Origin: Candidatus Woesearchaeota archaeon
GTDB taxonomy: Archaea > Nanobdellota > Nanobdellia > Woesearchaeales > ARS49
Assembly (NCBI GenBank): GCA_038868995.1
Contig: JAWCRZ010000003.1
Span: forward strand, 2,109-66,108
Reading direction: 5' to 3'
DNA length: 64,000 nucleotides
Shown here: piece after piece, positions 387-62,276 of the stretch
Numbering within the stretch: position 1 is the first letter of the stretch
How the letters are laid out: each line of letters starts with the position of its first letter
Notes under the pieces: generated by a model
Seen by the model: the letters and a program-made list of their open reading frames with translations, nothing else
Told to the model about the DNA's origin: nothing
The model's database searches: none
Translations under genes and position numbers: made by a program

Positions 387-1349
387 ATGAAAGCATTAAC
401 GACACTGTTGTTTTGCGTGATGTTTGTGTTGTCATCCGTCATGGTTTCAGCACAGAGTCACGTGACTCCGGTTGCCATTGAGCAGGCGGAAATTGACGGC
501 ACAGAAATCGAGCCATTTGGTGTTAACCAGCTGGACCTCGAGCGCGACCAGGAATTCGAGCTGCGCCTTGAATTGATGGCCTGGGAAGAGGCAAAAGATG
601 TCGAAATCCGTGCATTCATTTCTGGCTACGAATATAATGATGTGAAATCAATTGCAGACCAGATTGGTCCATTTGACTTCAGGGAAAACGTAACGTATGT
701 CAAGAAACTCCACATTTCCCTCCCTGATGATGTTGATGTTGATGACTACCAGTTGCGCGTTATCATTTCTGACAGAAATGGCTGGGAATTGGTTTACAAT
801 TACCAGTTGCAGGTGAACACCAAGCGGCACCTCCTGAAGATTGATGATGTCTATCTCAGTGCGCACTCAGTGCAGGCAGGTCAGGCAGTTACTGCAGTTG
901 TCCGCCTTGAAAATCAAGGCCAGAAGGACGAAAAAGACGTCAAAGTCGCAGTCAGCATTCCTGGCTTGGGCGTGTCAGGTGTTGATTATATTGATGAAAT
1001 CGAGAATGATGAGGAGGAGGAAACAGAGGAAATATTCCTCCGCACTCCTCGATGTGCAGAGCCGGGCGTGTATGACGTAAAGATTGATGCCTGGTACAAT
1101 AAGGGCCACAGCAAGGTGTCTGGAGAGAGCAAGCTGACTGTTCTTGAGAACCCGGCCTGTGCGCCTGAGCCGGCACCAGTGGTTGTTGTTCAGCCGGCAC
1201 AGAATGCAACGTCAGCCGAAGCTCCGGCTTCTTCTGCATCTGCAGGCAAGTTGCGCAGCGCATTGGAAATTATCCTGTTGGTGCTTGTTGCGCTCTTGGT
1301 GATTGTCGGCCTGATAATCGGCTTCTCCCGCATGCGCGGAGAGGAGTGA
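387..1349 (+). CDS. secreted surface protein with N-terminal signal peptide and C-terminal TM anchor, function unknown
   Basis: 320-aa ORF. It has a hydrophobic N-terminus ending VSAQS, an acidic stretch, a Pro/Ala-rich linker and a C-terminal hydrophobic helix followed by RMRGEE. A TATA-like box lies upstream. Confidence 0.6.
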   Translation: MKALTTLLFCVMFVLSSVMVSAQSHVTPVAIEQAEIDGTEIEPFGVNQLDLERDQEFELRLELMAWEEAKDVEIRAFISGYEYNDVKSIADQIGPFDFRENVTYVKKLHISLPDDVDVDDYQLRVIISDRNGWELVYNYQLQVNTKRHLLKIDDVYLSAHSVQAGQAVTAVVRLENQGQKDEKDVKVAVSIPGLGVSGVDYIDEIENDEEEETEEIFLRTPRCAEPGVYDVKIDAWYNKGHSKVSGESKLTVLENPACAPEPAPVVVVQPAQNATSAEAPASSASAGKLRSALEIILLVLVALLVIVGLIIGFSRMRGEE

Positions 1350-1369
1350 TTTTTTTTTATTCTCTTTTT
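1350..1369 (+). terminator. oligo-T tract directly after stop codon (archaeal-type termination signal)
   Basis: T9 run followed by ATTCTCTTTTT, immediately after the TGA at 1347-1349. Confidence 0.4.
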
Positions 1370-1371
1370 AG

Positions 1372-1405
1372 GGTTAAGTCAAGTTTCTGGTGCTGGCTGT
1401 CCGCC
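1372..1405. mobile_element. internally deleted remnant of the family-1 hairpin MITE (left terminus only)
   Basis: GGTTAAGTCAAGTTTCTGGTGCTGGCTG is identical to the left terminus of the copies at 17091 and 55747. It is flanked by the direct repeat CTTTTTAG (1364-1371 and 1406-1413). Confidence 0.6.
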
Positions 1406-1416
1406 CTTTTTAGTTA

Positions 1417-1427
1417 CTTTTTTAAAC
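1417..1427 (+). promoter_or_regulatory. TATA-like box for alaS
   Basis: CTTTTTTAAAC is centred about 28 nt upstream of the ATG at 1450, the same spacing seen at most genes in this window. Confidence 0.4.
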
Positions 1428-1449
1428 AACTTCACTTCTGTTCTCGTCT

Positions 1450-3963
1450 ATGGACGAGTCAAAAATCAAAGAGGAAGTGCGTTTGAATGCTTCCTTGAAT
1501 CCTGAAAAGTTTTTCCCTGTTGATACGCTGAAGAAGCGAGGTTTTTCCCGTCATCAGTGCTCTAAATGCCTGCGTTTCTTCTGGTCTGTCCACAAGCAGG
1601 ATGTTTGTGGCGACCCTGCCTGTTCCGGCGGCTTTCGCTTTATTGGCCATCCTATGAAGAGGCAGCTTGATTATATTCAGGTCTGGCAGGAATTTGCGCG
1701 TATTCACAGGAAGCTTGGTTATACTCCAATAAAGCGCTATCCTGTTATAGCCCGCTGGAATCCCACAACTGATTTTACAATTGCCTCTATTGCCGCGTTC
1801 CAGCCGTTTGTGGTTTCTGGTGAAATCGCTCCTCCTGCAAATCCTCTTGTTATTCCTCAGATGTGTGTTCGGTTCCCTGATATTGACAATGTTGGCATTA
1901 CAGGTCATTGTGTTGCTTTTGTGATGATGGGCCAGCATGGCTTTTTCCCTCCAAAGCAGTATGATGTTAACAAGTATTGTGATGACCACCTGGTTTGGCT
2001 GCATGAGGGGATGGGCTTGCAGATGCAGGATATCACTGTCCATGAGGATGTCTGGGCTGGCGGAGGCAATCTTGGCCCGTGTATGGAGTTTTTCTCGAGG
2101 GGCCTTGAAATTTCCAATCAAGTGTATATGCAATATGAAATCACTTCTTCAGGATTGAAAGAGCTGAACATCAAGGTGCTTGATATGGGTCAGGGCCAGG
2201 AGCGCGTGGCTTGGTTTACTTCTGGCAAGCCATCTATTTATGAGTGTGTCTTTCCTCCGGTCATAAGGAAGATGCGTGAGGTGACTGGCGTAGAATATGA
2301 TGAAGAGTTCATGAAGAAATTCACTCCTCTTGCTCCTTATCTCAACATTGGGGAAGCGAAGGATATCAATGCTGCGTGGAAGTTTGTCGCAGACAAGCTT
2401 AAGATGGATGTTAAATCCTTGAGAGACAAAATTCTGCCGCTTGCTGCCTTGTATGCTGTTGCCGAGCACAGTCGTGCGCTTCTTTTCGCGATTAATGACG
2501 GTGGCCTTCCTTCAAATGTTGGCGGCATGTATAATTTGCGCGTCATTCTGCGCAGAGCGCTCGGATTCATTGAAAAGTACGGCTGGAAGCTTGGTTTGCC
2601 GGAGATTTGCAGGTGGCATGCTGATTATCTTGAGCCACTGTATCCTGAATTGCAGGAAAATATTGATGAAGTGTGTGAGATTCTGGATGTTGAGCGCAGG
2701 AAGTACGAGGCGACTCGTGAAAAGACAAAGTCCTTGCTGCCTCGTCTGCTTGAAAGGAAGCTTTCAACTGAAGACCTTATTACTATTTATGACAGTCAGG
2801 GAATTGCTCCTGAGCTGATACGCGATGAGGCGGCGAAAATTGGAAAGGATGTTGTAATTCCTGAGAATTTTTATGCATTGGTTGCTGCCAGGCATGAAGC
2901 AAAGGAGCAGGAGCATGCTACTGTGCGTGCTGAGTCCCTGCCTATTCCTCCAACTGTTCCGCACACCAAAGCATTGTACTTTGACGATTATGCCAAATCC
3001 TCTTTTGACGGCAAAGTCGTTGAAATCATTGGTAACAATGTCATCTTGGACCAAACTGCTTTCTATCCCACTTCTGGAGGCCAGTTGTCTGACCGCGGAA
3101 CATTGGAAGGTAGCAAAGTTGTAGATGTCTTCAAACAGGGTCCTTATATCGTTCACGTGCTTGATGGAAAACCCAAGTTTCATGCTGGAGATACAGTGCA
3201 TGGTGATGTTGATTTCGAGCGGAGGGTCCAGCTTGCCCAGCACCATACTGCTGCGCATATTATCAATGCTGCTGCCCGTGCTGTCCTTGGCCCACATGTT
3301 AATCAGGCCTCTGCGAAGAAGGATGTTGACAAGGCACATATTGACATTACTCATTATGAAAGTTTGACTGACGAGCAGCTTGAACGTATTGAAGAGGAAG
3401 CCAACAGGATTGTTCGGCAGGGCATTAAGACGAGATTGCATTTTATGCCGCGTGAAGAAGCTGAAAAGATTTATGGAATGGCTATTTATCAGGGTGGAGT
3501 TGCTCCAGGCAAGCAATTGCGTATTGTCGAGATTCCAGGCATTGATGTTGAGGCGTGCGGTGGCACTCATCTCAAGAGTACTTTGGAAGCTGGCAGAATC
3601 AAGTTGTTGAAATCATCAAAAGTAAAGGATGGCATAGTGCGTATTGTATTTGCTGCCGGTCGTGCAGCTGAGAATGTTGCCAATGCTGAGAAGCAGGTGC
3701 TTGACAAAGCTGCTGCCCTTCTTAAATGTGATGTGCATCAAGTTCCAGGCCGTGCTGCTGAGCTTTTTGAAATTTGGAAGAAGGCAAGGAAAGCATTTCA
3801 GAAAAAGCAGCCATTGCCTGACTTGACCCTTAAATCAACTGTTGCAACCGCGACTGATATCATTCAGAAGACAGCTGAAGCCCTTCAAACCCAGCCGGAA
3901 GTTGTTGTCAAGACAATTGAGAGATTCTTGGCTGACTTGGAGAAGTTCAAACTTCAACGCTGA
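1450..3963 (+). CDS. alaS: alanyl-tRNA synthetase, archaeal type
   Basis: 837 aa. The editing-domain motifs HHTAAHIINAA and CGGTHL are present, with archaeal AlaRS N-terminal architecture. Confidence 0.95.
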   Translation: MDESKIKEEVRLNASLNPEKFFPVDTLKKRGFSRHQCSKCLRFFWSVHKQDVCGDPACSGGFRFIGHPMKRQLDYIQVWQEFARIHRKLGYTPIKRYPVIARWNPTTDFTIASIAAFQPFVVSGEIAPPANPLVIPQMCVRFPDIDNVGITGHCVAFVMMGQHGFFPPKQYDVNKYCDDHLVWLHEGMGLQMQDITVHEDVWAGGGNLGPCMEFFSRGLEISNQVYMQYEITSSGLKELNIKVLDMGQGQERVAWFTSGKPSIYECVFPPVIRKMREVTGVEYDEEFMKKFTPLAPYLNIGEAKDINAAWKFVADKLKMDVKSLRDKILPLAALYAVAEHSRALLFAINDGGLPSNVGGMYNLRVILRRALGFIEKYGWKLGLPEICRWHADYLEPLYPELQENIDEVCEILDVERRKYEATREKTKSLLPRLLERKLSTEDLITIYDSQGIAPELIRDEAAKIGKDVVIPENFYALVAARHEAKEQEHATVRAESLPIPPTVPHTKALYFDDYAKSSFDGKVVEIIGNNVILDQTAFYPTSGGQLSDRGTLEGSKVVDVFKQGPYIVHVLDGKPKFHAGDTVHGDVDFERRVQLAQHHTAAHIINAAARAVLGPHVNQASAKKDVDKAHIDITHYESLTDEQLERIEEEANRIVRQGIKTRLHFMPREEAEKIYGMAIYQGGVAPGKQLRIVEIPGIDVEACGGTHLKSTLEAGRIKLLKSSKVKDGIVRIVFAAGRAAENVANAEKQVLDKAAALLKCDVHQVPGRAAELFEIWKKARKAFQKKQPLPDLTLKSTVATATDIIQKTAEALQTQPEVVVKTIERFLADLEKFKLQR

Positions 3964-4222: not shown

Positions 4223-4890
4223 CTGAACAGTTTGTCTAAAATATCAAGCGTGTAGAGCACGATTGCTTCTGCCTGTGTCTTGCTGGGGCTGAAACTGTCT
4301 TTTTTCGTGTGCACGCTGAACACTCTTACCTGATTTATCAAATGAATCTGATTTGGCAGTCCGGGGTCTAACCTGACTCCATGTTCTGACAATTTTGCTA
4401 TCAGCGTGCCCAGTCCGGTTCCCGGAGCTTTTTCCAGCAAATCATTTCCGGTCGCCTCAAAGTATTTTCTGTGTAGTGCTGTCTCCATCACTCTGCCGCA
4501 CAGCACAACAGCACTTCTGTAGCATCCCGCATTGATGCACTTTTGTATTTCCAGCAAATCTGCAGTAACGTCTTCCTTTATTTCTGCTGGCAGTTTTGGC
4601 ATTTTGAAGCTCTTTTTCTGTTCATTTGTCTCACCTGCTATCATATCTGCCAGTTTTTCCACATACCCGATAATTTCCTCTGTTTTTGCAACAGCAAGTT
4701 TCTGCGCAATAGAGTGGGCTTCAGGATTATTCTTTGTTTCCTGCAACAGCCGCTGTATTGCTCCTTTGAGCATCAGCCGTGCTCCTTCCTTTTTTTGTTT
4801 CTTGAAATTGGTAATCAGGCCTTTGCCGTAATCTTCTTGCGCTTGCTTGGCTGCCTGTTGTATATCGACGAGAATGTGGTGGATGTCCAT
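4219..4890 (-). CDS. helical protein with DUF4145/HEPN-like C-terminal domain
   Basis: 223 aa. The N-terminal half is coiled-coil-like. The C-terminal half has an R-x4-H motif (RVFSVH) in a helical context resembling DUF4145. The family assignment is from memory only. Confidence 0.4.
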   Translation of the reverse strand: MDIHHILVDIQQAAKQAQEDYGKGLITNFKKQKKEGARLMLKGAIQRLLQETKNNPEAHSIAQKLAVAKTEEIIGYVEKLADMIAGETNEQKKSFKMPKLPAEIKEDVTADLLEIQKCINAGCYRSAVVLCGRVMETALHRKYFEATGNDLLEKAPGTGLGTLIAKLSEHGVRLDPGLPNQIHLINQVRVFSVHTKKDSFSPSKTQAEAIVLYTLDILDKLFR

Positions 4891-15762: not shown

Positions 15763-15773
15763 CTTTGCCTGCG

Positions 15774-15898
15774 GGTGCTGTCAACTTAATGGTGCCGCGC
15801 TGGCCTGACTTTTCTTCTCCCCTTGCAAGTGCGGGGTGAGAAAAGTCATCTCGGCAACGTCGAGGCAGCGCGGCCAGCACCAGAGAGTTGACTTAACC
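15774..15898. mobile_element. family-1 hairpin MITE (125 bp) with perfect 9-bp target-site duplication
   Basis: It runs GGTGCTGTCAACTTAATGGTGC...CACCAGAGAGTTGACTTAACC and is flanked by TTGCCTGCG at 15765-15773 and 15899-15907. Confidence 0.85.
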
Positions 15899-15942: not shown

Positions 15943-16299
15943 ATGTCAAGAACAAATCCGCGCCCATCTGCCGAAATTATTCAGTTTGTCGGTGTTTCTG
16001 ACCTTGATGCTGAGGAGCAGGCTACAGTACATGCCATAACAACTGAGCATTTTGCTAAAATCAAGCGTGACTTGCAGAACATTACCAATATGACTGTTCA
16101 CGTTAAATGTTATCAGAAAGAGGGGGGCAGGAAGAAGTATTCTATGCACGTCAAGGTTGCCGCGCCGACAAGAATTTTTGACAGTTCTAACGCTGATGAC
16201 TGGGAGCTTCCAAGAGCTTTGCACAAAGCATTTGAGGATATCCGTCATCAGATTCAGCACAAGTTGCATACTGATAGTACAAGGCCGGATAGACTGTAA
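15943..16299 (+). CDS. small protein with possible HPF/RaiA (ribosomal S30AE-like) fold
   Basis: 118 aa. The predicted strand-helix-three-strands-helix pattern and the C-terminal helix WELPRALHKAFEDIRHQIQHK are colinear with bacterial YfiA/HPF. This rests on pattern resemblance alone. Confidence 0.3.
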   Translation: MSRTNPRPSAEIIQFVGVSDLDAEEQATVHAITTEHFAKIKRDLQNITNMTVHVKCYQKEGGRKKYSMHVKVAAPTRIFDSSNADDWELPRALHKAFEDIRHQIQHKLHTDSTRPDRL

Positions 16300-16366
16300 T
16301 TCTTTCAACTGGACAGTGGACAGTTGTTCATAGCGAATTTAAGCCAATTCTTTCCCGATATTGAGT

Positions 16367-16915
16367 ATGCAACTAACCCCAGAACTTGTTCGAATTCACG
16401 CGCATCTTTGTGGAGACGGCAGCATTTGTGAATACAAATCTTCCGAAAAAGACCATAAAAGACGCGCGGCGGTTCTTTATTGGAATACGAACTCAGAACT
16501 CATAGAGTCTTTTAGACGAGATATGACTGCAGAATTTGGAGTGAAGATGACATATAGCCCTAAAAGTTGCAGAGTGGCAGTCCGGAGTTTAAGGATTGCG
16601 AGACGATTGCTGTCTTTGTCACAATATAAAACTCGAACTTGGCGTGTGCCCGAACGCATCAAGAAGGCTTCACGCGAGTTGCAGATTGAATGGATTAAGG
16701 CATTCTCATATGATGATGGGTATACTCCGAGGGAAAGAAAAGTTATACGACTCAAGTGCATGAACTACCATGGACTTAAAGACGTCAAAGAAATGGTTGA
16801 CAAATTAAGAATAAAAAACTCATTCACTGGACCTAATTGTGATGGGACTTGGTATTTGAATATTCACAAGCAAAAAGAGTTATTTGATTTTGTCAAGAAA
16901 CCTTCAAGAAAATAA
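16367..16915 (+). CDS. free-standing double-motif LAGLIDADG homing endonuclease-like protein
   Basis: There are two LAGLIDADG-like motifs about 100 aa apart: HAHLCGDGS and IKAFSYDDGY. An alternative TTG start lies at 16361. Confidence 0.6.
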   Translation: MQLTPELVRIHAHLCGDGSICEYKSSEKDHKRRAAVLYWNTNSELIESFRRDMTAEFGVKMTYSPKSCRVAVRSLRIARRLLSLSQYKTRTWRVPERIKKASRELQIEWIKAFSYDDGYTPRERKVIRLKCMNYHGLKDVKEMVDKLRIKNSFTGPNCDGTWYLNIHKQKELFDFVKKPSRK

Positions 16916-16939
16916 GAGGGGCCCTGGAAAGCCCCAGTA

Positions 16940-17045
16940 TAGCGGGAGGTGGAAGTTCAGCCGGCGCAGTCAAGCACACGGGCATTTGAACCACCGAGCT
17001 ATGGGTTATGAGCCCATCGGGAACTCCAGACTTCCCTACCCCGCT
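16940..17045 (-). tRNA. initiator tRNA-Met (CAU) containing a 31-nt non-canonical intron at position 59/60
   Basis: Acceptor AGCGGGG/TCCCGCT with an A1:U72 pair. The anticodon arm ATGGG-CTCATAA-CCCAT has three G:C pairs. The T arm GGTGG-TTCAAA[intron]T-CCACC is interrupted at plus-strand positions 16954-16984. The mature length would be 75 nt. Confidence 0.8.
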
Positions 17046-17070: not shown

Positions 17071-17080
17071 TTTTATAAAT
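17071..17080 (-). promoter_or_regulatory. TATA-like box for initiator tRNA-Met
   Basis: The reverse strand reads ATTTATAAAA, centred about 30 nt upstream of the tRNA 5' end (17045) and directly next to the MITE duplication. Confidence 0.45.
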
Positions 17081-17090
17081 GTTTGCTCAG

Positions 17091-17232
17091 GGTTAAGTCA
17101 AGTTTCTGGTGCTGGCTGGCCGCTCTGGTCCTCTGGACTCATTTTTCTCTCCTCCTCGCAGGTGCGGAGGAGAGAAAAATGACCTCAGCGAAGCTGAGGC
17201 TGAGCGGCCAGCACAATTAAGTTGACAGCACC
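17091..17232. mobile_element. family-1 hairpin MITE (142 bp) with perfect 9-bp target-site duplication
   Basis: It runs GGTTAAGTCAAGTTTCTGGTGCTGGC...GCACAATTAAGTTGACAGCACC and is flanked by TTTGCTCAG at 17082-17090 and 17233-17241. The central 17-bp stem is perfect. Confidence 0.9.
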
Positions 17233-20472: not shown

Positions 20473-22406
20473 AAAAGCTTCTTATGCTGCTGTTACTGGT
20501 CCCGCTGGTCCTCGCCCAACCGACTGATTGGTTTAAGGCGGGCTTGGTTAAGACGAGGATGGAAGCATCCTCTGTTATTGAATTGCAACCGCGCGGACCA
20601 AATCCTTTTGTTGAGTCAATCCGGACAGACGTTATTTTTGTTCCTCAAAACTCCGAGTTTTCTGCTGTGAGGAGTTTTGATGCGACACCTTCTGCCATTG
20701 CCACTGGCGATCGTGTCCGGTTTGAATGGCGCGCTCCGCAGATAGGAAAATTGTCATACAAATACCAGGCAATTGTTGAAACCGCTAATAATGCTCCAAG
20801 GGTTGCTGCAAAGATTCCATATCCTTTTAAAGTGCCTCCTAATCTTGAAAAGTATGTCAAACCTACACAAAATATTGATTCTAACAATCCAAAGGTGTTG
20901 GGTCAGGCGTATGCCTTGGCACAGGGTGAGGATGACTTGTTTTTGTTGGTAAGCAAGATTGCAATATGGACCAAGAATAATGTTAGGTATAACCTAAGCA
21001 CGCTGACGGCTGATGTTTCCCAGCCGGCCTCCTGGGTGCTCGAAAACAGGTATGGTGTTTGTGATGAGATTACCGGCTTGTTTATTGCTATGCTGCGTGC
21101 ATTGAAGATTCCGGCAAAATTTGTTTCTGGCATTGCATTCACCAATTCTGTTGAGTTTCCGCAAGGGTGGGGCGCGCACGGCTGGGCTGAGGTGTATTTT
21201 CCTGGTGTTGGCTGGGTTCCTTTTGACCCTACTTTCGGTGAATATGGCTGGGTTGACCCGAGCCATATCAAGCTGAAGGAAAGTTTTGATCCTCAGGAGC
21301 CGACTACTGTGTTTGAATGGAAGGCGCGGGATGTCGATGTCAGGGTTGAGGACTTGAAGCTGGGCGCTGAGAAAATCGACCAGTCGGGCAGTGTGCCTTT
21401 TGAGCTTAAGTTGTCTGCCGCTCCGTTGAGGCCGCGCGTTGGCTTTGGCAGCTTCAATGGTGTTGTCCTGAACATTGAAAATCTTGCTGACTATTATGTT
21501 GGGGCTGAGTTCAGCTTGTCTCGGGTTACTGATATGACTATTCTTGACGGGGAATCAAAGCAGATTGCCCTGCCTCCGAAAGGGCGTGGACGTCTGTTTT
21601 GGAAGGTGAAAGTGCGGGAAAATCTTGACCCGCATTTCCAGTATGAACTGCCGATTCGCATTTACACAATTAGGAATGATACTGTTGAGACCGCGTTTGG
21701 AGTTGGCCAGTGGGATATCGTGTTTTCGCAGGCGGACATAGATACTGAAATAACCAGGCTTTCGGCAACCCAGCGCGATCCGTTGCAGTTGGCGTGCGTG
21801 CTGAAGGATGACATGATTTGGGATGATGTTGGCAGGGTTGATTGCCTTGTACAAAACAAGGGAGAAAAAGAGCTTCCTGTGAAAGTGTGTTTTGGGCAGT
21901 GCCGTGAGGCGATTGTTCCAGGTAATTCAAACTTGCCTGTATCCTTTGACATTCCAATGCCAGGCCCTGGCCAGAAGGAAGTTGTTGTGACTGCTTCTTC
22001 CGGTGACTTGGAGAAAAAGGCAGTGCTCACCTTGGTGCGCTTGGAAGAGCCGCGCATTGCCATTAAGGATATATCATTGCCTGAGCGCATCCTGTACGGG
22101 GATACTTTTACTTTGCTGTTCACTTTGTCGCGTGAAAGCATCTCGCTTCCTGAAAACGTCACTGTTAATGTCGAAGGTGGTGGAGCAAAGGCAAAAGTTG
22201 AGGTTGGTGACCTTTTAATCGATCAGGAAGTGCACGTCAACATCCGCTCTGACCAGTTGTATTCCGGTAATCCGTTGTTTGACATTGATGTTACGTATCA
22301 GGATCCATTCGGCCAGCAGTATCACGAAAGCGCTTCTGCTTCCACATTTGTTTCAGATGTGCCATGGTATAAGCGTTTCCTCGGCTGGTTTATTGACCTC
22401 TTTTGA
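20469..22406 (+). CDS. secreted transglutaminase-like domain protein
   Basis: It has a signal peptide. The transglutaminase core is YGVCDEITGLFIAMLRALKIPAKFVSG...HGWAEVYFPGVGWVPFDPT, giving the Cys-His-Asp triad. It overlaps pyrH by ATGA. Confidence 0.8.
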   Translation: MKKLLMLLLLVPLVLAQPTDWFKAGLVKTRMEASSVIELQPRGPNPFVESIRTDVIFVPQNSEFSAVRSFDATPSAIATGDRVRFEWRAPQIGKLSYKYQAIVETANNAPRVAAKIPYPFKVPPNLEKYVKPTQNIDSNNPKVLGQAYALAQGEDDLFLLVSKIAIWTKNNVRYNLSTLTADVSQPASWVLENRYGVCDEITGLFIAMLRALKIPAKFVSGIAFTNSVEFPQGWGAHGWAEVYFPGVGWVPFDPTFGEYGWVDPSHIKLKESFDPQEPTTVFEWKARDVDVRVEDLKLGAEKIDQSGSVPFELKLSAAPLRPRVGFGSFNGVVLNIENLADYYVGAEFSLSRVTDMTILDGESKQIALPPKGRGRLFWKVKVRENLDPHFQYELPIRIYTIRNDTVETAFGVGQWDIVFSQADIDTEITRLSATQRDPLQLACVLKDDMIWDDVGRVDCLVQNKGEKELPVKVCFGQCREAIVPGNSNLPVSFDIPMPGPGQKEVVVTASSGDLEKKAVLTLVRLEEPRIAIKDISLPERILYGDTFTLLFTLSRESISLPENVTVNVEGGGAKAKVEVGDLLIDQEVHVNIRSDQLYSGNPLFDIDVTYQDPFGQQYHESASASTFVSDVPWYKRFLGWFIDLF

Positions 22407-22534
22407 GAGTCAAGTTTCTGGTGCTGGCTGCTCTTGTCCTTTGGACTCATTTTTCTCTCGCAGGTGAGGAGGATAGAAAAATGACCTCGGCGAAGCTGAG
22501 GCAGAGCGCCCAGCGCCATTAATTTGACAGCGCC
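22407..22534. mobile_element. family-1 hairpin MITE (128 bp, left tip shortened)
   Basis: It runs GAGTCAAGTTTCTGGTGCTGGCTG...CCATTAATTTGACAGCGCC. The flanks CTCTTTTGA (22398-22406) and CTCTTCTGA (22535-22543) match at 8 of 9 positions. Confidence 0.75.
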
Positions 22535-28820: not shown

Positions 28821-29111
28821 CACTGGACACTGGACATTTTCCTTCTTGAGCTATTTAAAGCCAACCGGCTGATGTTCTTTCTGAGGTGATACAAATGGAA
28901 AATATCCAGGAAATATTTTTTGAGCAAATAAAGGCATTGACGCGGGAGACCTGCAGGCAGGGATTGAGGCTGAGATAATGGCGGACATCTATGACGACAA
29001 CGCCATCGACTATTTTGAGGACGATGACGACCTTGATTCTGCCGATGCTGCCTTTATGCACGGCTACCTGTCAGCATAAAATTTTTATTTTGTCTCATTT
29101 GAAGCTTTTCT

Positions 29112-30444: not shown

Positions 30445-31617
30445 ATGAGTGTTGACGGCATTGCAGCAATCATTTTTGTCATTCTGCTTGGCTTGTTTTT
30501 GTGGAAAAAGCGTAATCAGGTTCATCTGCAAAAGGCGCTGTTTCCAATTTTGTATGTTGTGATGTACAAATCGTCTTTTGGCCTGCGCTCTATGGAGCGT
30601 ATTTCAAAAAAATTCCCAAGGATGCTTCGCCTGCTTGCCGACATTGCTGTCATTCTGGGCTTTATAGGTATGGTCTTTATTTGTGCGCAGCTGCTGCTCG
30701 TCACAGTTGAGGTGTTTACAAAGCCAGGTGGCATACCGGGCATTCAGCCGGTGCTGCCTATTGAGGCAAAGGGTGTCTTTTTTGTTCCGTTCCTGTACTG
30801 GATTTTGAGCATTTTCCTGCTTGCATTGTTTCACGAGTTTGCCCATGGTGTTGTCGCACGTGTCTATAATATTCCTGTTAGGAGCAGTGGTTTTGCTTTT
30901 CTCTGTATTGTCCTGCCTGTCATTCCTGCTGCTTTTGTCGAGCCCGATGAGAAGGTAGTGCAGAGGCGTTCTTATCGTCAGCAGCTTGGCGTGTTTGCTG
31001 CCGGTCCTATTGCGAATATGCTTTTTGCCGCAGCAATGATTGGTGTTTTTTTTCTGGTGTCTCCTATTCTGTCATCTGCTTTTGAGCCACAAGGTGTTGA
31101 GGTGGTGAAGATAACTCCCGGCGGTCCTGCTGCCCTGGCAGGAATTAAGGAAGGTGACATTATTACCTATATTGACAATGTTCAGGTATCTTCAGTTGAG
31201 AATATGACTGCAATTCTCAAGCAGGCAGCGCCCGGCGACCATCTGTTGTTTCAAACATCTGCTTCATATGCCGTGACTCTTGGTGAAAACCCTCAGAATG
31301 CTTCTAAGGCTTTTCTTGGGGTGCAGACTCGTACCCATCTTGTTCCTAAAGAAGTTTTTGTTGAGCGCTATGGCGCCTGGCTTCCGTTGTTGCTTAAATG
31401 GGTTGCTGGCCTTATTTTCTGGCTGTTTATGCTGAATGTAGGTATTGGCCTTTTCAATCTGTTGCCAATTGGCCCGCTTGATGGGGGCAGGATGTTCCAA
31501 TTGGTTTGTTTCAAATTGTTTAAGAACAAGTCCACTGCTGTCCGCGTCTGGGCTTTTGTTAGCGTGTTTTTCGTTGCTATTATTCTGGCAAATATGCTTG
31601 TTGGCTTCTTCCGCTAG
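30445..31617 (+). CDS. site-2 protease family (M50) membrane metalloprotease with PDZ domain
   Basis: HEFAHGVVA (HExxH) sits in a TM helix. There is a PDZ-like segment ITPGGPAALAGIKEGDIITYIDN and a LDGG motif near the C-terminus. Confidence 0.85.
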   Translation: MSVDGIAAIIFVILLGLFLWKKRNQVHLQKALFPILYVVMYKSSFGLRSMERISKKFPRMLRLLADIAVILGFIGMVFICAQLLLVTVEVFTKPGGIPGIQPVLPIEAKGVFFVPFLYWILSIFLLALFHEFAHGVVARVYNIPVRSSGFAFLCIVLPVIPAAFVEPDEKVVQRRSYRQQLGVFAAGPIANMLFAAAMIGVFFLVSPILSSAFEPQGVEVVKITPGGPAALAGIKEGDIITYIDNVQVSSVENMTAILKQAAPGDHLLFQTSASYAVTLGENPQNASKAFLGVQTRTHLVPKEVFVERYGAWLPLLLKWVAGLIFWLFMLNVGIGLFNLLPIGPLDGGRMFQLVCFKLFKNKSTAVRVWAFVSVFFVAIILANMLVGFFR

Positions 31618-33077
31618 CCCTTTACATTCCCAATCGGCTTGAACGCGACTATTTTCTTGCTAATGCCTGCCTTATCCATTGTGTCCACTACTTCAGAAAT
31701 TGGTTTGTAGGCAAAGCCAGCTTCTTCCGCAAGGCCTGAATAGCTGGCTGTTCTGACGTAAATGCCTCTTTTCTGCATTTCTTTTTGCAGTTGCTCTCCG
31801 CGCACTTCTTTCCTTGCTTTTGTCCTGCTCATCGTTCTTCCGCTTCCATGTGCAGTGCTGCCGAATGTCTCCTCGAGTGCTTTGTCGGTTCCCAAAAGCA
31901 GGTAGCTTCCTGTTTCCATGCTCCCTCCCACAATCACCGGCTGTCCAATCTTTCTGAATCGCGGTGCAAGCTCTGTTCTGCTTGGCCCGAAGCATCTTGT
32001 TGCGCCTTTTCTGTGTACTACAAGCTTTTTCTCTTTTTTTCCCAGCGTATGCTTTTCAAACTTTGCTACATTGTGTGCAACGTCGTATACAAGATGCATT
32101 TCCATTTCTTCAGGGCTTTTTTGGAATATGTTTTTGAAGCATTCGCGTATTCTGTGCAGTATGACCTGCCTGTTTGCGAATGCGGTGTTTGCAGCGCAGG
32201 CCATTGCATGGTAATAGTTCTGTCCTTCTTTGCTTGAGAATGGCGCGCATGCCAGTTCTGGGTCGCGTACTTTTATTTCATATTTTTTCATTGCTTCTGA
32301 GAATATTTTAAGGTAATCAGTGCCGATTTGGTGTCCAAATCCCCTGCTCCCGCAGTGCACCATGATGCATATTTGGTCTTCACTTGTTATGCCTAGCTTT
32401 TCAGCAACTTTCTTGTCAAATATCTGTCCTGCGTATTGGATTTCAAGATAGTGGTTTCCGCTTCCAAGTGTTCCGAGTTGGTTGATGCCCCTGCTTATTG
32501 CTTTTTCGCTTACTTTGTCCGGTTCTGCGTGGTCTATGCATCCGTAGTCCTCTGTGCGTTCAAGGTCTTCCTCCCATCCGTACCCGTTCTCAATGCACCA
32601 TTTTGAGCCGTTTTTCATCACTTCTCTGAATGTTTGCGGCGTGAGCTTTACAAAGCCCTTGCAGCCGACGCCTGAAGGGACTTGCTGGAAAAGCATATCA
32701 ACCAGTACTTTTAATTTTGGCTCCATTTCTTTGTATGTCAGGTTTGTTGTTACCAGCCGCATGCCGCAGTTTATGTCAAAGCCGATTCCTCCTGGAGAGA
32801 TTACTCCTTCGTCTGGGTCAAATGCAGCCACTCCTCCTATTGGAAACCCGTAGCCCGAATGTGCATCTGGCATGCAAAGTGCATGATTCACAATGCCTGG
32901 CAGGCATGCAACATTGGTCAATTGGTCGTACACTGCCAAATCCATTTCTTTGATGAGTTTTTCAGTTGCGTAGATGCGTGCTGGCACGCGCATTCCTTTT
33001 TTGTACGCCATGGGGATGTCCCAGATGACGTCTCCTTTTCTTTCAAACTCAGGCACTTGAACATTGCGTTGCATCAT
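31614..33077 (-). CDS. rtcB: RNA-splicing ligase RtcB
   Basis: Conserved segments are present: CMPDAHSGYGFPIGGV, GFDINCGMR, GSGNHYLE, HCGSRGFGHQ, AHGSGR. The start at 33077 gives an ATGA overlap with the archease stop. The track ORF begins at 33104. Confidence 0.95.
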   Translation of the reverse strand: MMQRNVQVPEFERKGDVIWDIPMAYKKGMRVPARIYATEKLIKEMDLAVYDQLTNVACLPGIVNHALCMPDAHSGYGFPIGGVAAFDPDEGVISPGGIGFDINCGMRLVTTNLTYKEMEPKLKVLVDMLFQQVPSGVGCKGFVKLTPQTFREVMKNGSKWCIENGYGWEEDLERTEDYGCIDHAEPDKVSEKAISRGINQLGTLGSGNHYLEIQYAGQIFDKKVAEKLGITSEDQICIMVHCGSRGFGHQIGTDYLKIFSEAMKKYEIKVRDPELACAPFSSKEGQNYYHAMACAANTAFANRQVILHRIRECFKNIFQKSPEEMEMHLVYDVAHNVAKFEKHTLGKKEKKLVVHRKGATRCFGPSRTELAPRFRKIGQPVIVGGSMETGSYLLLGTDKALEETFGSTAHGSGRTMSRTKARKEVRGEQLQKEMQKRGIYVRTASYSGLAEEAGFAYKPISEVVDTMDKAGISKKIVAFKPIGNVKG

Positions 33078-33496
33078 ATGTCCAGCACCACCGTTGCCTG
33101 CCAAATGCCTTTTTTCTTTTCAACCATCCAGTAATGCATTGTTACTGCTTTCACGTCTTGGTTGAGCTCTTGCTCATCCGGTTTTATGGTGTCTCCGGTC
33201 AACAATGCAGTAACTTCCATTTTTTTTTCATCAACTTTCACTTCTGCCTTGTTGAAAACAATGGCATCCTTGTCTTTCAAATATATCATCTCCTCCAAAA
33301 AATCAAACAGCAGCTTGCTTGCATCCTTGTTCTTTATTTTAATCTCTTTTACAACAACCGGCTTGATGCTTTTCGGGTTTGCCATGCTTTCAATAACTGC
33401 GTCTGCAGCGCTTTGGAATAATTCGGTTAAATTTTTTCCTGTTGCCCTGAATGCAACATCTGCAATGGCTATGTCTTCGATGAATTTGAATGGCAT
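33074..33496 (-). CDS. archease (RtcB activator)
   Basis: 140 aa. The N-terminus MPFKFIEDIAIADVAFRATGKNLTELF and the C-terminus KAVTMHYW are typical of archease. Confidence 0.85.
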   Translation of the reverse strand: MPFKFIEDIAIADVAFRATGKNLTELFQSAADAVIESMANPKSIKPVVVKEIKIKNKDASKLLFDFLEEMIYLKDKDAIVFNKAEVKVDEKKMEVTALLTGDTIKPDEQELNQDVKAVTMHYWMVEKKKGIWQATVVLDI

Positions 33497-36240: not shown

Positions 36241-36311
36241 TGGGGCTGCGGAGGATCGAACTCCGGTCACAAGGTCCCGAACCTTGTATCTTGCCACTGG
36301 ACCACAGCCCC
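36241..36311 (-). tRNA. tRNA-Pro (anticodon CGG)
   Basis: Acceptor GGGGCTG/CAGCCCC, anticodon arm CAAGG-TTCGGGA-CCTTG, T arm CGGAG-TTCGATC-CTCCG, discriminator A. Confidence 0.9.
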
Positions 36312-36312
36312 G

Positions 36313-36384
36313 TGAGCCCGGCCAGATTCGAACTGGCGACCTTCTCCCTGTGAAGGAGACGTCATACCGCTAGACCACGGGCTC
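36313..36384 (-). tRNA. tRNA-Val (anticodon CAC)
   Basis: Acceptor GAGCCCG/CGGGCTC, anticodon arm TCTCC-TTCACAG-GGAGA, T arm GCCAG-TTCGAAT-CTGGC, discriminator A. It lies 1 nt upstream of tRNA-Pro. Confidence 0.9.
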
Positions 36385-55746: not shown

Positions 55747-55871
55747 GGTTAAGTCAAGTTTCTGGTGCTGGCTGCTCTTGTCCTTTGGACTCATTTTTCT
55801 CTCGCAGATGCGGAAAAATGACCTCGGCAAAGCCAAGGCTGAGCGGCCAGCACCATTAAGTTGACAGCACC
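55747..55871. mobile_element. family-1 hairpin MITE (125 bp) with perfect 9-bp target-site duplication
   Basis: It runs GGTTAAGTCAAGTTTCTGGTGCTGGCTG...CAGCACCATTAAGTTGACAGCACC and is flanked by TTAATCCAC at 55738-55746 and 55872-55880. Confidence 0.9.
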
Positions 55872-56144
55872 TTAATCCACAGTCAGCAATTCGTCCAGTT
55901 CTTTCTGCCATAGGGCGATTTGCTGGTTGATAATCTTGAGTATTAGGTTTATGTTTACTTTTTGGAAGGGGATTAGAATGTTTGCTTCAAATTTGAGTTT
56001 GAGGTCATGGTCGGCGAGCAATGGAAGTATTGCCTTGAGGTCGTCTGTGTTTTGGAATCATCTTTTCATCAATGCGCGGAGGGTATCTATTTGTTCTTGT
56101 ATGTCTGCTGGTGACTTTGTTGGGTAGCGGACATTTGTTGTCAT
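55872..56144 (-). pseudogene. 90-codon reading frame interrupted by one in-frame TGA (possible decayed small gene)
   Basis: Reverse frame gives MTTNVRYPTKSPADIQEQIDTLRALMKR*FQNTDDLKAILPLLADHDLKLKFEANILIPFQKVNINLILKIINQQIALWQKELDELLTVD. The TGA is at 56058-56060. The terminal TAA lies inside the MITE duplication. Confidence 0.25.
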
Positions 56145-61052: not shown

Positions 61053-62276
61053 ATGCGTTATCAAAAGATTTTCAAAGAGGTTCTTGCCGAAATTGTTCCT
61101 TCAAGGGAAGAGCGCCAGAAATTGTTCAGTCAGGTGAACATGTTTATAGCGGACCTGAACAGGGAACTTGCACGCACTCGTGTCAGCGCTAAGGCGGTGC
61201 TGGGCGGCAGTTATGCCAAGGATACCTGGCTTTCTGGTGATTATGATGTTGACATTTTTGTTAAATTCAACCTTGCCCATAAAGAGCAGAATCTTTCAGA
61301 TATTCTTGAGCGCGCCTTGAAGAAATGGCGGCATGTGCGCATTCATGGTAGCCGTGATTATTTCTGGGTAAGTAATGGCATAAAATATGAAATTGTACCG
61401 GTGCTGGACATTCAGAAAACTGATGATGCTGAGAACGTGACTGATTTTTCTCCTTTGCACGTTGCCTGGGTGAACAGGAAGGGTTCAAGGTTCAAGAATG
61501 ATATCCGTCTGGCGAAAAAATTCTGCAAGGCAAGCAATTGTTATGGTGCTGAGAGCTATATTCGCGGTTTTTCAGGCCACGTGCTTGATATTCTGGTCAT
61601 TTATTACAAGGGCATCATTAATTTGTTAAAAGCAGCCAGGAATTGGAAGCCAAAGGTTGTGCTTGATTATAATAATGTGTACAAGGGCAGGGCTGCAATG
61701 ATGCTTAATAAGAGCAAGATAGAAGGTCCTTTGATTCTGGTTGATCCTGTCCAGCCGGGAAGGAATGCCGCTGCTGCGTTGACGCAGGAAAACTTTGACC
61801 GTTTTGTGGGAGCCGCAAAGAAGTTTCTTAAGAGGCCGAGCAAGGAATTTTTTGTTGAGAAAACCGTTGATTTTTCAGCATTGATAAAGAAAGGTCATCT
61901 TATTTTGGTTAAAGTTAAGACGTTGGACGAAAAGGAGGATGTTGCCGGTACAAAGTTTGTTCGCGCTTTTGAACACGTGCGTGCCCAGCTTGCTGATTTT
62001 AATGTTAAAGACGCTGGTTGGGTATGGGATAGAAGGGAAAACGGTGTCTGGTGGTTTGTTTTGGGCAAAAAGCAATTGCCTGCAATAATCGACTGGCCCG
62101 GCCCTCCGCTCAAGTTCTCTGAAGCTGTAAAAAAGTTCAAGAAAATCCACAAAAAGACATTTGCAAAGAAAGGGCGCGTTTGGGCAAAGGTGAAGCGTGA
62201 GGAAACAACTCCTGAGCAGGTGTTGAAGCGTGTCCTTAATTCCGATTTTGTCAAACAACGGGTGAAAAAAATATGA
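61053..62276 (+). CDS. cca: CCA-adding enzyme, archaeal class I tRNA nucleotidyltransferase
   Basis: GGSYAKDTWLSGDYDVDIFVKF is the nucleotidyltransferase G[SG] and DxD motif. Length is 407 aa with class I architecture. Confidence 0.9.
   Translation: MRYQKIFKEVLAEIVPSREERQKLFSQVNMFIADLNRELARTRVSAKAVLGGSYAKDTWLSGDYDVDIFVKFNLAHKEQNLSDILERALKKWRHVRIHGSRDYFWVSNGIKYEIVPVLDIQKTDDAENVTDFSPLHVAWVNRKGSRFKNDIRLAKKFCKASNCYGAESYIRGFSGHVLDILVIYYKGIINLLKAARNWKPKVVLDYNNVYKGRAAMMLNKSKIEGPLILVDPVQPGRNAAAALTQENFDRFVGAAKKFLKRPSKEFFVEKTVDFSALIKKGHLILVKVKTLDEKEDVAGTKFVRAFEHVRAQLADFNVKDAGWVWDRRENGVWWFVLGKKQLPAIIDWPGPPLKFSEAVKKFKKIHKKTFAKKGRVWAKVKREETTPEQVLKRVLNSDFVKQRVKKI

Follow-up and report, generated by a model that had tools for sequence, protein, structure and literature searches.

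Non-canonical bulge-helix-bulge (BHB) introns in archaeal tRNA genes were reportedly treated by Marck & Grosjean in 2003 and by Sugahara in 2008. Positions 53/54 and 59/60 are both listed among the non-canonical sites of archaeal tRNA introns (PMC4090602), and two initiator tRNAs with disrupted genes have been reported: the permuted tRNA-iMet(CAU) of Thermofilum pendens, joined at 59/60, and the split initiator tRNA of Nanoarchaeum equitans (PMC3218864). Archaea of the DPANN group, a Woesearchaeote among them, were reported to possess many disrupted tRNA genes, which have been linked to an alpha4-type splicing endonuclease (EndA) with an extra 'L3' loop, and the incomplete tRNA sets of DPANN genomes have been read as a hint of undetected disrupted genes (PMC5829648). 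Here we analyze a stretch of 64,000 nucleotides (64 kb, hereafter the window) from a Candidatus Woesearchaeota archaeon (contig JAWCRZ010000003.1), focusing on an initiator tRNA-Met (tRNA-iMet) gene that is interrupted within its T arm and on the open reading frame (ORF) that adjoins it.

The interruption resembles the known non-canonical BHB introns in that it is predicted to be protein-spliced, is defined solely by a helix-bulge-helix-bulge-helix (hBHBh') motif, lies at a T-loop site and would be removed by EndA together with the RtcB ligase. It differs from them in its host, which is a DPANN Woesearchaeote rather than a crenarchaeon, in residing in the initiator tRNA, and in being polymorphic among close relatives (none, 59/60, 53/54 or both) and linked to an endonuclease gene. 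A preliminary description of the window, made from sequence alone, was right to identify 59/60 as a known intron site; its reference to 'Thermoproteales-type' hosts calls for a caveat: the organism is a DPANN Woesearchaeote, and disrupted tRNA genes had already been reported as common in DPANN archaea (PMC5829648). A BHB junction at 59/60 in the essential initiator tRNA, which it found noteworthy, has a precedent in the permuted gene of T. pendens (PMC3218864). That gene likewise yields an essential initiator tRNA by maturation through a BHB located exactly at 59/60, but its order is circularly permuted, the 3' half preceding the 5' half, and it carries an extra 37/38 intron, whereas the window gene is collinear and has a simple 31-nt intron. 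Taken alone, the split initiator tRNA is an unsurprising addition to the tRNA oddities already known from DPANN archaea.

The gene beside the tRNA calls for a different set of comparisons. Endonucleases of the I-DmoI type (PDB 1b24, 2vs7, 2dch) share with its product a monomeric, double-motif LAGLIDADG architecture of approximately 180-190 amino acids (aa) and an association with a BHB intron in a conserved archaeal RNA gene. Their genes lie inside rRNA introns; in contrast, the window gene lies beyond the tRNA gene and on the other strand, with the 14-nt exon 2 and a hairpin intervening between it and the very short intron, which has no ORF of its own. Its product shows a sequence identity of only about 20% to I-DmoI-type enzymes. 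A closer parallel in arrangement is collaborative homing, which was demonstrated experimentally for the free-standing endonuclease F-CphI and an ORF-less group I intron in cyanophage psbA (Zeng, Bonocora & Shub 2009, as described in PMC6083498), with trans homing by T4 mobE / I-TevIII as a related case (PMC2790892). In the F-CphI/psbA system, as it is described there, a free-standing endonuclease gene adjoins a gene with an ORF-less intron, and the intron, located at the cut site, protects its carrier and hitch-hikes on the conversion tract. These phage systems, both experimentally established, involve a self-splicing group I intron, a phage protein gene and an Endo VII or HNH-type enzyme; the window combines a putative enzyme-spliced BHB intron, a cellular tRNA gene and a predicted LAGLIDADG enzyme, and everything beyond the gene arrangement is deduced. 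A gain of tRNA introns through a mobile element has also been proposed for Caldiarchaeum subterraneum (PMC3293823), where population heterogeneity at one tRNA locus similarly ties intron gain to a neighboring mobile element. The Caldiarchaeum element spans 1.8 kb, encodes a recombinase and scatters tRNA fragments, whereas the partner in the window would be a homing endonuclease, with insertions that are exact and tied to particular positions. A literature search, with subscription journals outside its coverage, returned no paper linking free-standing LAGLIDADG genes to archaeal tRNA BHB introns. As far as we have found, a position-specific match between two LAGLIDADG families and two T-arm intron sites, in a tRNA gene that is essential, has not been described before.

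The tRNA-iMet gene is read on the minus strand from 17045 to 16940, in the order exon 1, intron and exon 2 (Table 1). Its mature product is predicted to comprise 75 nt, and the CCA end is absent from the gene. Exon 1 contributes the 5' strand of the acceptor, the D arm, the CAU anticodon arm, the variable loop, the 5' strand of the T stem and TTCAAA; exon 2 supplies T60, the 3' strand of the T stem (CCACC), the 3' strand of the acceptor (TCCCGCT) and the discriminator A. All the initiator elements named in the preliminary description are present in the sequence: the A1:U72 pair in the acceptor (AGCGGGG / TCCCGCT, followed by A73), the CAU anticodon within a 7-nt loop (CTCATAA) and three consecutive G:C pairs, G29-31:C39-41, in the anticodon stem (ATGGG / CCCAT). 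The intron carries no ORF and is framed by a strict hBHBh' motif in which the 5-bp T stem GGTGG/CCACC (16991-16995 / 16948-16952) forms helix h. The central 4-bp helix TTCA/TGAA (16987-16990 / 16956-16959) is bordered by two 3-nt bulges on opposite strands, AAT (16984-16986) and CTT (16953-16955), and helix h', GCC/GGC (16981-16983 / 16960-16962), is prolonged into an 8-bp hairpin. In its centroid fold, the precursor adopts a cloverleaf in which the BHB prolongs the T arm. Geometrically, the 59/60 motif can be viewed as the counterpart, one arm along, of the canonical 37/38 motif of the anticodon arm, with the T stem taking the place of the anticodon stem and positions 54-57, 58-59 and 60 mapping to 32-35, 36-37 and 38, respectively.

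Joining the exons by cutting two nucleotides into each bulge generates a 75-nt RNA that ARAGORN scores as a perfect tRNA-Met(CAT), in agreement with the earlier suggestion that such cleavage restores the T loop TTCAAAT. In the raw window, ARAGORN reports no tRNA at 16940-17045, with or without its intron options, and six tRNAs elsewhere; Rfam at its curated threshold gives the same result. A covariance model recognizes the cloverleaf once the intron is removed: the spliced sequence, taken from the identical gene of the related locus L010, obtains 55.3 bits against the Rfam tRNA model, over the cut-off of 29. The unspliced gene reaches 18.8 bits in a focused search and stays below it. A whole-window Rfam run in E-value mode does not list the interrupted gene, because filters are stricter for long input, and the interrupted genes of three relatives (L033, L009 and L031) are equally undetected by the Rfam tRNA model at curated threshold. 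A BHB scan, also recommended in the preliminary description, was carried out in the manner of SPLITS on both strands, requiring a strict hBHBh' motif and introns of 11-159 nt, splicing each candidate in silico and submitting the product to ARAGORN. The window holds 917 strict BHB candidates, and the only one to yield a tRNA spanning the junction is 16940-17045, a match that exceeds what chance would produce. The motif GGGCTCATAACCC occurs once in the window, and no second tRNA-iMet gene was found within its 64 kb.

Relatives of the locus were collected by scanning a D-arm plus anticodon-arm pattern against one genome per GTDB species and against Joint Genome Institute (JGI) metagenomes, which returned 16 loci each (L001-L032); loci L033-L049 were fetched through the endonuclease gene. 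The named genomes matched by the pattern are Woesearchaeota or Nanoarchaeota bins. A common gene order, consisting of SMC, a parvulin-type peptidyl-prolyl isomerase, RNase HII, orf118 (a gene of 118 aa) and then the tRNA, is conserved across loci, as is the other flank of the tRNA (CobW, an amino-acid kinase and a transglutaminase-like protein), with protein identities of 50-87%. This shared order indicates that the tRNA locus is orthologous and that the window derives from a Woesearchaeote. In the 33 sequences formed by the window and L001-L032, 18 loci lack an intron; a 59/60 intron alone is found in the window, L002, L007 and L011/L018, a 53/54 intron alone in L009, L016/L020/L029, L017 and L025, and both introns in L006/L031/L032 and L028. 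Five intron-less genes (L008, L010, L013, L014 and L019) reproduce the predicted spliced RNA of the window base for base. Each of the six intron-bearing GTDB genomes contains a single match to the tRNA-iMet 5' half, which, as far as incomplete bins allow, speaks for the split gene being their sole tRNA-iMet copy.

Introns homologous to that of the window occur at 59/60 in L002, L007, L011/L018, L033-35, L006/31/32, L028, L036-L041 and L045, and we compared 12 distinct ones, with lengths of 17-31 nt. The central helix is almost invariant, because the T loop forms its 5' strand. Helix h', in turn, is maintained by differing sequences (GCC:GGC, TCT:AGA, TAA:TTA, TGA:TCA, GTT:GGC). BHB pairing is present in 91% of the cells of this comparison, as against 32-55% in control registers slid by 1-3 columns, and both sides have changed in 7 of the 12 BHB pairs, namely all three h' pairs and four of the five h pairs. 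The covariation score is 0.417, compared with 0.120 in shuffles, and none of 500 shuffles reached the observed values, so that the BHB is under selection. Given the strict motif, the five identical intron-less orthologues, the score of the spliced form and the covariation of the BHB, we are close to certain that the locus is, as first proposed, a genuine initiator tRNA-Met gene with a 31-nt intron at 59/60.

Of greater interest within the locus is the gene that ends 24 nt from the 3' end of the tRNA, which is missing from the preliminary description. Its ORF encodes 184 aa from a TTG at 16361, although an ATG at 16367 (182 aa) is the more likely start; it is convergent with the tRNA gene, with its stop at 16915 and the tRNA 3' end at 16940. 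We recovered 91 homologues of this ORF, several of which carry the Pfam domain LAGLIDADG_3 (PF14528), P0049 (28.5 bits) and P0091 (34.7 bits) being examples above its cut-off, and an exhaustive profile search gathered 447 representatives of what we term family A at E<=1e-10. Across an alignment of 52 homologues, the motifs HAHLCGDG (R-I-H-A-H-L-C-G-D-G) and W..F..D / AF..D[DE] are invariant, and so are both catalytic acidic residues, D19 (in HLCGDG) and D118 (in AFSYDDG). The family A profile matches intein endonuclease domains in the PDB (7qsu, E=5e-7). An AlphaFold (AF2) model has a predicted local distance difference test score (pLDDT) of 95.9 and a predicted template modeling score (pTM) of 0.91, with a tandem alpha-beta-beta-alpha-beta-beta-alpha topology. 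Foldseek aligns this model to I-DmoI (E ~4e-9, template modeling score (TM) 0.65-0.68), PI-PkoII (TM 0.77), the endonuclease domain of the TliVMA intein, PI-PfuI and I-Tsp061I. Sequence and model together firmly support the prediction that ORF 16361-16915 encodes a free-standing, monomeric, double-motif LAGLIDADG endonuclease similar to I-DmoI.

Endonuclease genes and introns are strongly associated over the related loci, with exceptions in both directions. Where a syntenic locus has no intron, the distance between orf118 and the tRNA is 12-39 nt; in intron-bearing syntenic loci, an endonuclease ORF is inserted between the two, so that orf118 is the gene pushed away from the tRNA by the insertion. 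The inserted ORFs belong to two families, A (~184 aa) and B (~265 aa), which on a hhalign probability of 35% we regard as unrelated; family B is also of LAGLIDADG type, with motifs FCGLMAGDGHI and IRGLADTDFC and a Pfam score of 29.1 bits. All syntenic loci with family A (window, L007, L011/L018 and L033-35) carry the 59/60 intron, and all those with family B (L009, L016/20/29, L006/31/32 and L017) carry the 53/54 intron, whereas tblastn searches for either family in intron-less loci gave no signal even at E<=1. Among syntenic, independently sampled alleles, the endonuclease gene is present in 7 of 10 intron-bearing and in 0 of 17 distinct intron-less ones (Fisher p ~1.4e-4, a hand calculation that ignores phylogeny). 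Three intron-bearing loci, L002, L025 and L028, have no endonuclease gene. The association extends beyond the syntenic context. Nine further family A homologues, with identities of 33-87%, all adjoin a tRNA gene, many of them in unrelated neighborhoods, and for six (P0001, P0014, P0017, P0049, P0064 and P0091) that tRNA bears the 59/60 intron. P0091 adjoins a tRNA-Ile(GAU), and the gene for P0049 (locus L037) lies on the tRNA strand, its TAG stop overlapping tRNA positions 1-2. Family B also turned up in two other contexts, P0101/L047 and P0126/L048, in both cases adjoining the 3' end of a tRNA-iMet gene that bears a 53/54 intron. In total, family A adjoins a tRNA in 12 of 12 lineages, with a 59/60 intron in 9 of the 12 and never one at 53/54, and family B is paired with a 53/54 intron in every one of its 6 lineages.

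Filled and empty alleles offer a direct view of the insertions. In a tree of RNase HII plus orf118, intron and endonuclease states are scattered, and the empty allele L010 is nearly identical to L033-35, which have both the intron and the family A gene. L010 and L033 share 99% identity over 230 nt upstream of the tRNA and 92-93% over approximately 1.4 kb downstream, and what sets them apart is an insertion of exactly 30 nt at 59/60 together with one of ~630 nt that starts about 4 nt past the tRNA and comprises the endonuclease gene and the hairpin, with 18 nt between the two insertions. L030 was compared with L009 and the window through blastn high-scoring segment pairs. Degenerate endonuclease genes are also seen: two in-frame stops interrupt the family A gene in L011/L018, family B in L017 is missing its first 40 residues, and L025 corresponds to L017 minus 838 nt of the endonuclease gene, retaining the intron and a 13-codon remnant. 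L002 and L028 represent a further stage, with introns alone. Judged from sequence, this patchy presence combined with degenerate copies is the pattern expected for the life cycle of a homing endonuclease.

We consider it fairly probable, on these grounds, that the interrupted tRNA-iMet gene and its neighbor constitute a collaborative-homing unit, in which the intron would be one half of a two-part selfish element and the free-standing endonuclease gene the other. The pre-tRNA would be transcribed from the TTTATAAA promoter with a 106-nt precursor core; EndA would cut two nucleotides into each 3-nt bulge, following established archaeal tRNA splicing, RtcB with archease would join the halves and restore the T loop TTCAAAT, and the CCA-adding enzyme would complete the 3' end. 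As the intron forms a BHB, the host machinery would remove it at no cost to an invariant, essential RNA. The endonuclease, for its part, would cleave tRNA-iMet alleles that have no intron, at a site within or close to the T arm, and repair from the occupied allele would carry over everything from the intron through exon 2 (14 nt) and the hairpin to the endonuclease gene as one conversion tract. In the genome of the carrier, the intron would split the target and thereby protect it. The near invariance of the initiator T arm would make it an ideal homing target and, since such a target cannot escape by mutation, a spliceable insertion would be the available form of immunity.

The main rival to this proposal holds that the intron is an ordinary, vertically inherited, neutral BHB intron and that the LAGLIDADG gene is an unrelated neighbor, using the tRNA flank as a safe landing site or as a target. 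Several observations weigh in its favor or, more generally, against a collaborative-homing unit. The window ORF itself scores 21.4 bits against PF14528, under the cut-off of 22.5. Identity to the window family A protein is 87% in L033, 67% in L007 and 65% in L011, and that of orf118 is 46-86%; over these four syntenic lineages the family A tree roughly tracks the host genes, and vertical descent with repeated loss is possible. Three of the nine further family A homologues (P0078/L042(43), P0086/L044 and P0025/L049) are intact genes beside tRNAs that lack a 59/60 intron, from which it follows that the intron is not obligatory for coexistence, and the double-intron alleles L006/31/32 carry family B only. 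The endonuclease gene was the route by which half of the contexts were obtained, so that L033-L049 test whether an endonuclease implies a tRNA or an intron and not the reverse. The introns that lack an endonuclease gene (L002, L025 and L028) fit this alternative as well, and tRNA genes are well-known integration sites (PMC3293823). As regards the three intact exceptions, the adjoining T arms differ from those of intron-bearing tRNAs within ~6 bp of the site (GGAGG/CCTCT, AGTAG/CTACT, and TTCGAAT, an A57G change, instead of TTCAAAT in an otherwise matching tRNA-Ile); such substitutions could confer immunity without an intron, an argument that is admittedly post hoc. An unrelated neighbor would not, however, readily account for two unrelated families that each keep their own intron position (59/60 for A, and 53/54 in all six lineages for B), for an endonuclease gene in none of the 17 intron-less syntenic alleles, or for near-identical alleles (L010 and L033) that differ by both insertions at once. 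We judge this alternative unlikely, while taking it seriously.

Considerably less probable is the view that ORF 16361-16915 has been domesticated, either as a maturase-like chaperone of pre-tRNAs interrupted in the T arm or as a DNA-binding, WhiA-type protein that regulates the tRNA locus. Group I introns do have LAGLIDADG maturases, the fold search also matches the WhiA transcription factor (8dy7_I, E=4e-7), and the gene is placed tightly and specifically beside the tRNA. Yet BHB splicing by EndA needs no maturase, the two catalytic acidic residues are conserved without exception in the 52 homologues, a patchy distribution with pseudogenes and clean deletions is unlike that of a host function, and three lineages (L002, L025 and L028) keep the intron in the absence of the gene. 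That the interrupted gene is a decaying pseudogene, with an intact initiator tRNA elsewhere serving initiation, is scarcely credible: only 64 kb of the genome are visible and standard tRNA finders do not call the gene, but its exons are identical to functional intron-less orthologues, its promoter box is conserved, its BHB is kept by compensatory changes across lineages, and the intron-bearing GTDB genomes have one tRNA-iMet 5' half each.

Whether the collaborative-homing reading can be generalized is a separate matter. We put forward tentatively, with somewhat less than even confidence, that non-canonical archaeal tRNA BHB introns arise and spread as immunity partners of free-standing LAGLIDADG endonucleases. 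Under such a model, the enzyme would target an invariant stretch of a tRNA gene, where only a spliceable insertion would break the target without altering the mature tRNA; intron and endonuclease gene would move together by gene conversion, and an orphan intron would remain after the gene decays. If this were true, it would amount to a general route of tRNA intron gain in Archaea, and its signature would be position-specific families, such as A with 59/60 and B with 53/54.

The preliminary description had also deduced from the intron a splicing endonuclease with relaxed specificity. A strict hBHBh' motif does not by itself imply such an enzyme; the case is made instead by the 53/54 introns of the relatives, in which tRNA positions 48-51 pair with the intron and there is no outer helix, which makes them of the relaxed HBh' type. 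One compensatory change, from CGGT:GCCG to CGAT:GTCG in L047, backs this pairing, and these introns argue for a broad-specificity EndA in the lineage. EndA itself (PF01974/PF02778) was not found among the window ORFs scanned with Pfam. The RtcB ligase and archease that had been placed within 31614-33496 are borne out by strong Pfam matches, and the window also encodes TruD and a CCA-adding enzyme, an activity that is needed here since the tRNA genes do not encode the 3' CCA. The positions of these genes and of the elements of the locus are collected in Table 1. In the window, which has a G+C content of 45%, the TTTATAAA box is a likely promoter of the tRNA-iMet gene, as judged from its conserved position, and the hairpin between the convergent genes, which lies within the ~630-nt insertion that distinguishes L033 from the empty L010 allele, is a likely two-way terminator. 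The conserved neighbor orf118 shows a weak Pfam match to S30AE / ribosome-hibernation-factor-like proteins (E=8e-4, under the cut-off).

Table 1. Coordinates of the elements of the tRNA-iMet locus and of the tRNA-maturation genes in the window
Feature	Position	Strand	Basis
tRNA-iMet(CAU) gene, 106 nt including intron	16940..17045	-	Sequence; ARAGORN on spliced form
Exon 1, 61 nt, tRNA positions 1-59, AGCGGGGTAGGGAAGTCTGGAGTTCCCGATGGGCTCATAACCCATAGCTCGGTGGTTCAAA	16985..17045	-	Sequence; ARAGORN on spliced form
BHB intron at 59/60, 31 nt, TGCCCGTGTGCTTGACTGCGCCGGCTGAACT	16954..16984	-	Sequence, fold, homologous introns, covariation
Exon 2, 14 nt, tRNA positions 60-73, TCCACCTCCCGCTA	16940..16953	-	Sequence; ARAGORN on spliced form
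Likely promoter box TTTATAAA, 27-34 nt upstream of tRNA position 1	17072..17079	-	Conserved at equal distance in all related loci
Likely two-way terminator: G+C hairpin (GGGGC...GCCCC) with an adjoining downstream T-run, in the interval where tRNA and endonuclease genes converge	16918..16935	.	Sequence
Predicted free-standing double-motif LAGLIDADG endonuclease gene, family A	16361..16915	+	Pfam, homologues, profile, model
orf118, conserved 118-aa neighbor of the tRNA-iMet gene	15943-16299	+	Synteny
RtcB tRNA-splicing ligase	31614..33104	-	Pfam PF01139, E=8.7e-175
Archease, RtcB cofactor	33074..33496	-	Pfam PF01951, E=5.2e-34
CCA-adding enzyme	61053..62276	+	Pfam tRNA_NucTransf2 and CAA_C

Further observations concern the surroundings of the endonuclease genes. 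A promoter-like element, composed of ACTGGACA (often doubled), a spacer of 8-24 nt and AGCGTATTTAAA, lies ~25-30 nt before the start codon of genes of both families, occurring in the window at 16308-16345 and 28822-28858 and upstream of the endonuclease genes of L007, L009, L020, L029, L031, L033, L036, L044, L047 and L049. We considered this element, ACTGGACA...TATTTAA, as the end of a mobile cassette and rejected the idea, as the copy at 28822-28858 precedes two unrelated tiny ORFs, one at 28886-28978 and one at 28978-29079; more probably it serves these archaea generally as a regulatory or promoter motif. A MITE-like repeat (miniature inverted-repeat transposable element) of ~125 nt, with terminal inverted repeats GTCAAGTTTCTGGTGCTGGC...GCCAGCACCATTAAGTTGAC, is present in five copies over the 64 kb, at ~1375-1500(+), ~15770-15895(-), 17094-17222(+), 22406-22530(+) and ~55750-55880(+). 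Positioned between the divergent genes for tRNA-iMet and tRNA-Ser(GCU), the copy at 17094-17222 forms a long hairpin (-68.5 kcal/mol, z = -7.2) and is absent from all 49 related loci. A 17-bp inverted repeat upstream of the tRNA was rejected as a part of the tRNA locus, being one copy of this dispersed repeat. Elsewhere in the window, tRNA-Pro(CGG) and tRNA-Val(CAC), at 36241-36384 on the minus strand, are separated by a spacer of 0-1 nt, the 3' end of one meeting the 5' end of the next.

Other observations pertain to individual relatives. The slot beside tRNA-iMet that elsewhere holds an endonuclease gene is occupied by a 2H-phosphoesterase gene in L028 (105-665 nt after the tRNA) and in L014 (174-731 nt after it). 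Both ORFs were examined as a third endonuclease family and rejected, since they are 2H / 2'-5' RNA-ligase-like (PF13563, E=5e-13), and the ORFs next to the tRNA in L002 match neither family A nor family B. In L028, the 2H-phosphoesterase-like ORF stands in place of an endonuclease gene beside a tRNA with both T-arm introns, and the presence of an RNA-end-processing enzyme next to a twice-split tRNA may not be a coincidence. L014 has, ~10-90 nt past its tRNA-iMet gene and on the opposite strand, a tRNA-like 3' half (…GGAGTTCAAATCCAC…) beside a stretch, GTGCTTTGGTGCAC, that resembles the core of the 59/60 introns of L002 and L007, and this may be another T-arm-split tRNA with a related intron. 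The tRNA-iMet gene beside P0017 in L040/L041 (~3577-3800) seems to hold about four introns (in the acceptor/D region, D arm and anticodon loop and at 59/60); a separate 88-aa LAGLIDADG_3 fragment is found on its other flank, and the annotated endonuclease ORF runs through exon 2 on the opposite strand. L037 (~4598-4740) and L038/L039 (downstream of 4567) contain tRNA-iMet-like tRNAs with a T stem GCG(T)GG/CCCGC that includes an apparent bulged T, and with the anticodon loop CCCATAA (C33). L049, where the family A gene adjoins a tRNA-iMet without an intron, has a second LAGLIDADG_3-like gene, of 347 aa, at 737-1780 (-), between RNase HII and an orf118-like gene. Finally, five loci (L002, L005, L009, L010 and L013) come from third-party assemblies titled 'uncultured Methanosarcinales archaeon'; they present the gene order of the Woesearchaeota and the window, with 60-85% protein identity, and judging by these sequences their labels are probably wrong.

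The locus and its relatives bear on how introns come to occupy odd positions in archaeal tRNA genes, for which they offer a concrete and testable mechanism. Their assets are naturally occurring alleles, filled and empty, that lie exactly two insertions apart, a pair of independent, position-matched endonuclease families and all stages of endonuclease decay. An essential initiator tRNA that is invisible to default finders also implies that the apparent count of missing tRNAs in DPANN bins is inflated. Should the enzyme prove to cleave the T arm of intron-less alleles, the reach of collaborative homing would widen from phage group I introns to the enzyme-spliced introns of archaea, the fact that invariant tRNA sites are hit would be explained, and new small LAGLIDADG enzymes with defined tRNA-gene targets would become available.

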